A stretch of DNA of 42,657 bases, taken from positions 1 through 42,657 of the IMG/VR virus record IMGVR_UViG_2925914267_000007. One strand, given 5' to 3'. Each line of letters begins with the position of its first letter. The first letter of the stretch is position 1. Source of the DNA: a virus. Lineage: Duplodnaviria; Heunggongvirae; Uroviricota; Caudoviricetes. The notes under the pieces are model-generated. The model searched no databases and was not told where the DNA came from. It saw nothing but the letters and a program-made list of their open reading frames with translations. A program made the translations under genes and the position numbers. Positions 37,081 to 38,043 of the stretch are shown in pieces.

Positions 37081-37680
37081 GTATCTAAAAGAAACATGTC
37101 ACAGGCAAGATTAAACAAAATTTGGTTGTAACACGGCGTATGGCACATGCGTCGTTAGCGGTCTGGGGACGTTAAAGGGGACAATCCACTCCTTGCTCGA
37201 GCAGACAAACCAGGTAGCCGGAATGTGCAAGTCAATGAGGATGCTGATAAGACGCCTAACCAGCGTGGCGATTCGGTTTGACGCCTGGGAAGAGACCAGG
37301 GTGCAACGATGAGGGCATTTATGGAACCGCGACAAAGTGTGGTGCCGTAACTGGCTAAGTGCTCTCAGCGTTGTGGTAATCCGCGAAATGGCGCGGCGGT
37401 AAGTATGGCGGGGTTATTCCTTCCCCGTTGAGGACACCGGATTGTCAGGTTGACCATACACCTGAGTGACAACCCCACCACAACAGCCACTGCTTTGGCG
37501 GTACCAGTTTGTACACTTGCTTCCGGCTGGTACCGCTCTTTTTACAAAACAGAGAAGAGCATCACCGGACGACGGGCTCATAACCCAATCCATCCGGGCG
37601 GCTGCCACCGCAGGTGTTCTTCTCTGTTTTGTGGAGAAACCAACCGACCTTGCAGGGTCGATATGATGAGGAGCAGCAAA

Positions 37681-38043
37681 ATGGCTAGCGAACGCAGTAC
37701 TGATGTGCAGGCATTTATCGGGGAGCTGGACGGCGGCGTATTTGAAACCAAAATCGGCGCAGTTCTCAGTGAAGTCGCTTCCGGTGTGATGAACACGAAA
37801 ACCAAAGGGAAGGTCTCACTCAACCTGGAAATCGAACCATTTGATGAGAACCGTGTGAAAATCAAACACAAACTCTCATATGTTCGCCCGACTAACCGCG
37901 GGAAAATTTCCGAAGAAGACACCACCGAAACGCCGATGTATGTCAATCGCGGTGGTCGCCTGACTATTCTGCAGGAAGACCAGGGACAGTTACTGACTCT
38001 TGCCGGTGAACCTGACGGAAAACTCCGCGCAGCAGGTCATTAA
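37681..38043 (+). CDS. hypothetical early protein
   Basis: Start MASERSTD with SD GAGGAG; about 120 aa; upstream part of the 197-aa ORF judged to be leader. Confidence 0.45.
   Translation: MASERSTDVQAFIGELDGGVFETKIGAVLSEVASGVMNTKTKGKVSLNLEIEPFDENRVKIKHKLSYVRPTNRGKISEEDTTETPMYVNRGGRLTILQEDQGQLLTLAGEPDGKLRAAGH

Follow-up and report, generated by a model that had tools for sequence, protein, structure and literature searches.

Leaders of phage early operons are known in several forms that work as RNA. In lambda, the nutL-N leader carries boxA and boxB and an RNase III-sensitive stem before N, and phage tRNA clusters encode stable RNAs of unknown role, such as the T4 species 1 and 2 RNAs and the GOLLD and ROOL RNAs near prophage tRNAs. 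The lambdoid phage HK022, which lacks N, has an RNA-only element termed put (∼73 nucleotides (nt), two stems) just 3′ of its early promoters at both PL and PR and 5′ of terminators, while the ban leader of phage P1 runs through a dicF-like region, tRNA-Asn, tRNA-Thr and tRNA-Ile to ban. In the Qin prophage of E. coli K-12 the dicBF operon (ydfABC-dicF-dicB) yields the small RNA DicF, whose 5′ end is made by RNase E and whose 53-nt and 72-nt forms arise by termination and by RNase III cleavage, respectively (PMC9438474, PMC5069750); similarly, an early-left terminator of lambda doubles as the Hfq-type small RNA PreS (LPR1) (bioRxiv 10.1101/2024.10.31.621285). Here we analyse the ∼600-nt leader that separates a PL-like promoter from yfdP in the IMG/VR record IMGVR_UViG_2925914267_000007 (42,657 nt, hereafter “the window”), which from its sequence reads as a lambdoid prophage of the SfV/cdtI/Ayreon type. 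The leader is not one element but at least five modules, each found independently elsewhere, and three of these, which we call A, B and C, are each a covariation-supported fold on the plus strand. With a probability of roughly 0.58, we take the leader to be an array of stable RNAs that are transcribed together and released by nucleases, joined by a small RNA derived from the terminator; it would follow the plan of the dicBF leader and head a repressor-controlled early-left operon. From promoter to first gene the features are as follows.

37053-37080 (+): PL-like sigma-70 promoter, TTGACA-16-CATAAT, matching the consensus at 11/12 positions
37059-37097: operator-like repeats, overlapping the PL-like promoter
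37132-37308 (+): module A, a pseudoknotted RNA domain supported by covariation
37311-37366 (+): punctuation hairpin 1 (“A-ext”), base GAGGGCAUUUA / UAAGUGCUCUC, variable interior
37370-37376 (+): junction motif GUUGUGG, 3′ of punctuation hairpin 1
37370-37484 (+): module B, closing stem GUUGUGGU (37370-37377) / ACCACAAC (37477-37484)
37485-37543 (+): terminator and candidate small RNA at the DicF position, stem 37498-37507/37527-37536, 19-nt loop, tail UCUUUUU (37537-37543)
37544-37632 (+): module C (punctuation hairpin 2), candidate RNase III site, long stem with three-way interior
37633-37683 (+): yfdP upstream region, with a conserved GGAGAAACCAAC / GGAGAAAC motif 3′ of C, a hairpin at 37645-37660, the Shine-Dalgarno sequence GAGGAG at 37668-37673 and the start codon at 37681
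37681-38043 (+): yfdP, of no Pfam family, whose ATG at 37681 ends the untranslated interval

BLAST splits the leader into pieces, each with its own distribution among phages. Module A, on the left, is shared with P1, P7, D6, SJ46, many lambdoid prophages and the epsilon15-like Uetakeviruses of E. coli, Salmonella and Klebsiella. Module B, in the middle, recurs in thousands of E. coli genomes, and module C, on the right, in SfV, SfII, ST64B, Citrobacter phiNP and Klebsiella phages. Among lambdoid, P1-like and epsilon15-like phages each module is exchanged on its own.

The closest counterpart is the Qin dicBF leader, which is likewise read from beside a DicA/cI-type repressor gene and has a copy of B (90% identical), a terminator hairpin with UUUGGCGGUAyCAGUUU, a long stem and then the first downstream open reading frame (ORF). 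Unlike Qin, the window lacks ydfABC and the 5′ part of DicF, gives neither a DicF model match nor complementarity to ftsZ, and has module A and a punctuation hairpin in front. The P1 ban leader shares a B-type domain with its terminator, as well as A directly after tRNA-Ile, but its order and neighbours are different, real tRNAs are interspersed and module C is absent. With lambda PreS the window would have in common a small RNA of Hfq type whose 3′ end is a terminator within the early-left operon, although PreS is unrelated to the window's hairpin in sequence and position. The T4 species 1 and 2, GOLLD and ROOL RNAs are comparable as structured, conserved phage RNAs beside tRNAs, probably co-processed with them, but show no sequence or Rfam relationship to A or B and differ in size and fold. 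The lambda nutL-N leader resembles that of the window: neither is translated, both belong to the early-left operon, and each has a boxA-like string and, ahead of the first gene, a long stem of RNase III type; however, the window has no recognisable N and no boxB, and its boxA-like letters are unconserved and form a terminator tail. Finally, HK022 put shares the promoter-proximal position, the RNA-only character, the placement 5′ of terminators and a lambdoid setting without a recognisable N, whereas A and B are single-copy, larger and pseudoknotted and also adjoin tRNAs in non-lambdoid phages. The architecture is thus a variant of the dicBF leader, the P1 ban leader and the early-left terminator-derived small RNAs, while A, B, C and the cassette grammar described below have no Rfam family or description that we could find. 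Rfam was run at the gathering threshold on the window and 12 related loci and permissively on the whole leader, A, B and the terminator; none of these runs gave a match inside the interval, and for A there was no match in Rfam 15 even at E up to 10. A full-text literature search with the core sequences returned no paper, and the literature on DicF precursors, the P1 ban operon, antiterminator RNAs and prophage structured RNAs yielded no description of A or B.

Module A shows strong covariation, and its internal elements are given below.

37134-37141/37147-37154: helix P1, a hairpin with loop GGCAC
37158-37165/37211-37218: helix P2, with a variable insert
37213-37231: invariant GGUAGCCGGAAUGUGCAAG
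37252-37255/37263-37266: helix P4, loop UAACCA
37258-37261 (AACC) with 37275-37278 (GGUU): pseudoknot
37284-37288/37296-37300: helix P5, loop GAAGAGA

Across 26 diverged copies aligned with MAFFT, a model of five helices and two loop pairings has 98.8% of its cells paired, against 25–46% when partners are slid; ten pairs show compensatory change and none of 500 shuffles reaches the covariation score. The first hairpin has a G-C to A-U swap in 11 of the 26 sequences, helix P4 has three compensated pairs, and the pseudoknot CACC:GGUG shows a C-G to A-U swap, the window itself carrying AACC:GGUU. The unpaired nucleotides are invariant. Since the invariant U-G pairs would be A-C mismatches on the other strand, the plus strand is favoured. 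RNAalifold proposed a long-range GGCACAU/AUGUGC helix, which was set aside for the local P1 hairpin in view of its G-C to A-U compensation; as a loop pseudoknot of A the same pairing, involving invariant bases only, is possible in the model.

The invariant 19-mer of A occurs at no fewer than 120 loci in viral contigs, which reduce to 44 representatives below 93% identity among the matches listed. Module A itself is present in 1832 of 5426 complete E. coli genomes (34%), with 554 places on plasmids. Beneath 12 sampled E. coli matches there was no annotated feature. Its neighbours are frequently tRNAs: in phage P1, A starts 13 nt 3′ of the CCA end of tRNA-Ile, ahead of ban; in Uetakeviruses, A and its hairpin end 3 nt 5′ of tRNA-Arg; and across 127 loci with the A core motif, tRNA-Ile (called tRNA-Met by ARAGORN) lies just upstream in 17 and tRNA-Arg just downstream in 33. 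Two loci (L042 and L077) have arrays of repeated CCUGACCAGC ... GGGAAAGACC some 300–560 nt 3′ of the A core motif, after the terminator, which resemble the P4-loop and P5 parts of A.

Between A and the domain that follows it there is a recurring punctuation: a GAGAGC...GCUCUC hairpin with variable interior, then (C)GUUGUGG. In 14 evaluable representatives the base GAGAGC/GCUCUC (or AAGAGC/GCUCUU) closes an interior of 59–88 nt. The slot after GUU|GUGG may hold tRNA-Arg, B or one of about a dozen other cassettes, ending in CCAC(AAC). Many cassettes follow the scheme GUGGUGA-AU-GCGC-AGGCUGAU-GCGC ... GCCGG-AGAUCAGCA-CCGGy-CACCAC. They consist of an acceptor-like strand of 7 nt, then 2 nt, a 4-base-pair (bp) D-like stem and a GC hairpin adjoining the 3′ strand, (U)CACCAC; their AGGCUGAU and AGAUCAGCA loops are complementary, in one case with compensation (GCUAAU/AUUAGC). 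By our own reading of the sequences, B gives GUGGUAA + UC + CGCG-AAAUGG-CGCG + G where the Uetakevirus tRNA-Arg in that slot gives GUGGCAU + UA + GCUC.... ARAGORN finds no tRNA in the window. The other cassettes have no Rfam match and B is not called by tRNA detectors, so the tRNA likeness is one of geometry and position rather than demonstrated membership. Two single cassettes contain tRNA-like arms, neither being called as a tRNA: a sister cassette on the minus strand of locus L016, after GTTGTGG, has GCGGA-CUUUUAA-UCCGU, like the anticodon arm of tRNA-Lys(UUU), and in another (L098) a canonical D arm is accompanied by a GGGUUCGAAUCCC T arm with a long insertion.

The unit of A, hairpin, cassette and DicF-like terminator is common to lambdoid and Uetakevirus loci: a terminator follows the A motif at a distance of ∼285 nt at all 25 Uetakevirus loci and at 53 of the 70 lambdoid ones. 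In Uetakeviruses (L004, L006, L007, L008 and others) the unit lies between portal-side and terminase genes and reads A, punctuation hairpin, tRNA-Arg and a DicF-like terminator, CUUGGCGGUGAUGG...CUAUCACCGCC plus U-run, the last in all 25 loci examined.

Module B occupies this slot in the window, and besides its closing stem it has four pairings.

37381-37385 (CCGCG) / 37392-37396 (CGCGG): H1
37409-37413 / 37423-37427: H2
37442-37447 (UUGUCA) / 37467-37472 (UGACAA): H3
37403-37408 (GUAUGG) with 37454-37459 (CCAUAC): loop pairing

Over 14 sequences 92.8% of cells are paired, compared with 32–57% for slid partners, and six pairs are compensated; the loop pairing GYAUGG:CCAURC is compensated in phage P1. 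In K-12 Qin the stretch that stops 8 nt 5′ of dicF matches B at 90% identity, and P1 and P7 carry a copy (75–80% identical) ∼45 nt 3′ of the C1-controlled ban promoter, where the annotated “dicF-like region” of P1 overlaps the B copy and terminator. All seven diverged B copies have an intrinsic terminator (hairpin and U-run) within 20–60 nt on the 3′ side, and in Qin this terminator is DicF itself. A genome-contig scan with the B 19-mer GGCGCGGCGGYAAGYATGG returned mostly chance matches in GC-rich genomes, an estimated ∼100 being expected from composition, with only Escherichia-type loci real, and so added little taxonomic breadth for B. One record, Actinobacillus phage vB_Apl-pPE4 (L134, 1500-1615), is assigned to a Pasteurellaceae host and has B at 85% identity alongside E. 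coli-type genes for DicA, Kil and exonuclease VIII, which could reflect either horizontal transfer or host mis-assignment.

The terminator that follows B in the window has arms GCGGTACCAG (37498-37507) and CTGGTACCGC (37527-37536), which are 100% complementary and form a perfect 10-bp stem; its minimum-energy fold has 13 pairs at −21.5 kcal/mol and qualifies as an intrinsic terminator. A simple terminator scan missed 37498-37543 because of the 19-nt loop. The hairpin takes the position and context of DicF, 3′ of a B domain and with its 3′ end at a terminator, and shares UUUGGCGGUAyCAGUUU with it, but not the 5′ part. We rejected the identification of this RNA with DicF: the Rfam DicF model (RF00039), which scores K-12 dicF at 76.7 bits, gives no match at E up to 10 on 36900-37800 or 37470-37560, and complementarity to the region around the ftsZ translation start is absent, with a duplex of −24.7 kcal/mol against a shuffle mean of −28.9 and −38.5 for DicF itself.

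Module C begins where the terminator ends. The perfect 15-nt inverted repeat reported in a preliminary description of this DNA is real, with coordinates that were one base off: ACAAAACAGAGAAGA lies at 37544-37558 and its complement at 37618-37632. The arms extend to 25 nt (37544-37568 and 37608-37632, 84% complementary), making ∼24 pairs in the minimum-energy fold and 20 as counted on the alignment, so that C offers the ∼20 bp or more of nearly continuous double-stranded RNA looked for in an RNase III hairpin. Among nine sequences from E. coli, Salmonella, Citrobacter and Klebsiella, 95.6% of cells are paired (slid, 42–51%) and six pairs are compensated, and the three-way interior is conserved as CCGGACGACGGGCUCAUAACCCAAUCCAUCCGG and GCGG..CCGC. 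C is an extended member of the punctuation hairpin type, and its interior motif GACGGGCYCAUAACCCAAUCCA also occurs inside the punctuation hairpin at other loci. In Qin, a long stem GUGAAUUUUGUGAUG / CAUCACAAAAUUCAU holds the place of C between the DicF terminator and the dicB ribosome site; by our own reading of the sequence, the published RNase III cut that gives 72-nt DicF would fall inside it.

Comparison with relatives bears out the preliminary description in its view of this interval as ∼600 nt of untranslated, structured RNA 3′ of a PL-like promoter, with no convincing ORF before 37681. Between promoter and yfdP there are five small ORFs, none under coding constraint: in relatives that are 75–81% identical across the aligned part of the leader, the three codon positions take up substitutions about equally (e.g. 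8/4/5 and 11/11/14), and three of the five ORFs are interrupted while two stay open. No conserved coding gene, which would have told against that view, emerged from these comparisons. The whole leader folds better than shuffles on the plus strand (z = −4.25), and the covariance analysis and Rfam scan that had been proposed gave, respectively, conserved pairing with compensatory changes in all three modules and the absence of a match noted above. The leader is untranslated, transcribed from the PL-like promoter and structured, with conserved base pairs, and therefore works as RNA; part of it is plausibly a regulatory small RNA.

We suggest the following course of events, by analogy with the systems described above. 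Once the promoter is derepressed, many transcripts would end at 37543 and others would read through. The ∼460-nt product would be cut by host nucleases to give A, B and a 3′ terminator-derived small RNA of Hfq type, as with DicF. An RNase P-like cut may fall at GUU|GUGG, the very point at which a true tRNA-Arg begins in other phages, and an RNase E cut may occur 3′ of B. Read-through RNA would be cut by RNase III in the 20–24 bp stem of C, separating the RNA array from the yfdPQR message and perhaps setting yfdP translation. On this model A and B most likely act as stable free-standing RNAs, being tRNA-like in this respect, rather than as signals to RNA polymerase.

Several points weigh against the processed array. 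Its nucleases are all assigned by analogy. Neither ARAGORN nor the Rfam tRNA model (E up to 10) recognises B as a tRNA, and the 8-bp closing stem of B leaves no free RCCA-type 3′ end of the kind that helps RNase P. A strong promoter lies within 150 nt of A in 19 of 70 lambdoid loci, compared with 0.6% of background windows, and this proximity would also suit a cis-acting leader. In addition, with no recognisable N and a terminator between promoter and first gene, read-through is needed, and the model supplies no means for it.

A more specific proposal is that A and the GUU|GUGG...CCAC cassettes, B included, are undescribed and widespread phage “pseudo-tRNA” effector RNAs, freed by the host tRNA-processing machinery. 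Their targets in trans would be proteins that handle tRNAs; they might, for instance, inhibit anticodon nucleases or other tRNA-targeting defences, or serve them as decoys. We put this forward tentatively, and would expect it to prove wrong more often than right.

The need for read-through is where the foremost rival begins. A and/or B may be a cis-acting processive antiterminator of new fold which, like HK022 put, binds RNA polymerase as nascent RNA, so that the polymerase reads through 37498-37543 and resists Rho on the long untranslated stretch. We consider this unlikely, but it has the merit of accounting for a terminator placed between promoter and first ORF in an operon where no N-like protein was found; the Pfam scan of nine neighbouring proteins detected no N-like domain, as previously claimed, and YfdP has no Pfam match and, judging from its sequence, no arginine-rich N-terminus. 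It would also suit the promoter-proximal position of A in many lambdoid loci, the constant location of B directly 5′ of a terminator, and the invariance of unpaired nucleotides in A, as expected of a surface that binds protein or polymerase. Furthermore, the slot of A is filled by another conserved promoter-proximal module of ∼70 nt in SfV (L002, ∼2555-2625), ST64B (L256, ∼640-715) and phiNP (L257, ∼535-605). This reads CGAACAGGCAGGACGCCCACGAAGUAGCCGCCYGGGGCAUAUGAAGnCCRGGAUGAUUCG, and its hairpin covaries (CCGGU/ACCGG, CCCGG/CCGGG, CCUGG/CCAGG) without matching the put model.

What tells against antitermination is, to begin with, the put model itself, a covariance model built from five putL sequences, with HK022 putL located and numbered in agreement with PMC9378689. 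It recovers the putR sites of HK022 (34 bits) and phiEt88 (35 bits) as positive controls, yet at E up to 10 it finds nothing in the window, SfV, ST64B, P1 or Qin; once filters are switched off, the leader reaches no more than 4.0 bits (E = 1.3). Comparison of the leader, A included, with HK022 by blastn gave only short non-significant matches, one of them a 14-nt exact match inside nun rather than put. Profiles of A and B searched with nhmmer each match once in the window, so there is no left and right pair as at PL/PR, and nothing on the PR side. As for a nut site, the boxA-like string is followed by a stem of at least 20 bp and not by boxB. The leader is therefore not a lambda- or HK022-type antitermination site and belongs to neither put nor nut; of the earlier suggestion of an antitermination element or regulatory RNA, the nut- or put-like element is not supported and RNA function stands. 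The wider distribution also speaks against a polymerase signal, in that A of phage P1 lies after a terminator and tRNAs far from the promoter, Uetakeviruses have no strong promoter nearby and their unit ends at a terminator, and a true tRNA can replace B in its slot, as would be more natural for a payload of stable RNA. Within the region, the highest put-like score lies outside the leader, at 35382-35456 on the minus strand (9.8 bits and E = 0.04, searching 3.2 kb with filters off), just 3′ of the CII-like ORF on the PR side, and is probably due to chance.

Two further motifs in the preliminary description were taken apart by the terminator. The boxA-like string is present (GCTCTTTTTACAA, 37535-37547, rather than 37534-37548), but it is the 3′ end of the terminator stem with its U-tract and was rejected as a nut boxA: homologues read CGCCCTTTTT or CGACCTTTTT there, keeping stem and U-run but not the boxA letters, and the pattern with one mismatch matches twice in the window against 0.83 expected by chance, which is not significant alone. 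The GGTACC inverted repeat, thought to carry operator-like half-sites, is likewise real as a repeat but forms the terminator stem; since phiNP keeps this stem although the sequence around its promoter, the place of an operator, differs, it is not an operator.

It is improbable, in our estimate, that B and the terminator form a riboswitch-like or tRNA-sensing attenuator deciding transcription of the early-left operon. A conserved, pseudoknotted and stem-closed domain directly before an intrinsic terminator in an operon leader, with the terminator sequence varying while the upstream domain is kept, is what such a device would look like; however, no Rfam aptamer model of a known riboswitch class matches the leader, inspection by eye of the window, Qin and P1 revealed no conserved alternative pairing of the 3′ part of B with the 5′ arm of the terminator, and B's slot is also filled by unrelated cassettes and a tRNA. 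Very improbable, too, is the view that the conserved pieces are mostly recombination linkers or debris of phage mosaicism and that only the terminator functions. Short boundary motifs (GUUGUGG and CCACAAC) do flank exchangeable segments, as shuffling would predict, but the compensatory changes in three modules, and the retention of A in a third of E. coli genomes and across three phage lineages, point to selection on the RNA folds. That the leader encodes small proteins, for example of 39 aa at 37193-37312 (+) or 64 aa at 37414-37608 (−), is scarcely credible despite the two ORFs that stay open in the relatives and the three hypothetical proteins annotated in the homologous stretch of the Ayreon record, given the lack of third-position substitution bias, the variable hairpins that differ by lengths not multiples of three, and the course of the 64-aa ORF across B, terminator and C, units that stand apart from one another in Qin and P1.

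The question matters beyond one prophage, because roughly one complete E. coli genome in three has A, as do P1 and epsilon15-like phages, and B adjoins DicF, among the oldest known bacterial small RNAs, in K-12. If these are processed stable RNAs, phage early operons would carry a modular “RNA payload” with the logic of a tRNA operon and swappable cassettes, and this would raise questions about anti-defence, host takeover and small-RNA production that can be tested. Should they instead be leaders that modify the polymerase, they would add a second class to the RNA-only antiterminators and account for the read-through of early terminators in lambdoid phages that lack N. In either case DicF biogenesis should be reconsidered, as should the many “hypothetical protein” annotations placed on such stretches.

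The remaining features concern the setting of the leader. Positions 37040-37700 (661 bases) are 100% identical to DNA of E. coli APEC E123 by BLAST, and SfV has the same arrangement of promoter and operator-like repeats. Upstream of the promoter lie the following.

36340-37014: cI-like repressor gene with a Peptidase_S24 domain, directly 5′ of the leader
37026-37043: terminator of the cI-like gene, between it and the promoter

The strand opposite to the leader carries one gene each of cro-like, CII/CP76-like and Rha/Ash type. On the plus strand, yfdP is followed by yfdQ (DUF2303) and by a gene taken to be yfdR, whose YfbR-like match is weak (E = 1e-4). The gene-free leaders from cI to the yfdP homologue in ST64B (L256, 527-1343) and phiNP (L257, 418-1411) are even longer than that of the window, at ∼815 and ∼990 nt, and contain the same kinds of module in other combinations. 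Elsewhere in the prophage, an ALIL pseudoknot (RF01497, 116 bits) at 30574-30690 on the minus strand is the frameshift signal of an IS3-family transposase and marks an insertion sequence. An ORF with Rha and Ash domains at 34308-35309 (−) has C4 antisense RNA (67 bits, 34908-34995, minus strand) and isrK RNA (60 bits, 35020-35096, minus strand) within or next to it, and together these constitute an antirepressor module resembling immI, of the kind seen in P1, P7 and Gifsy phages.

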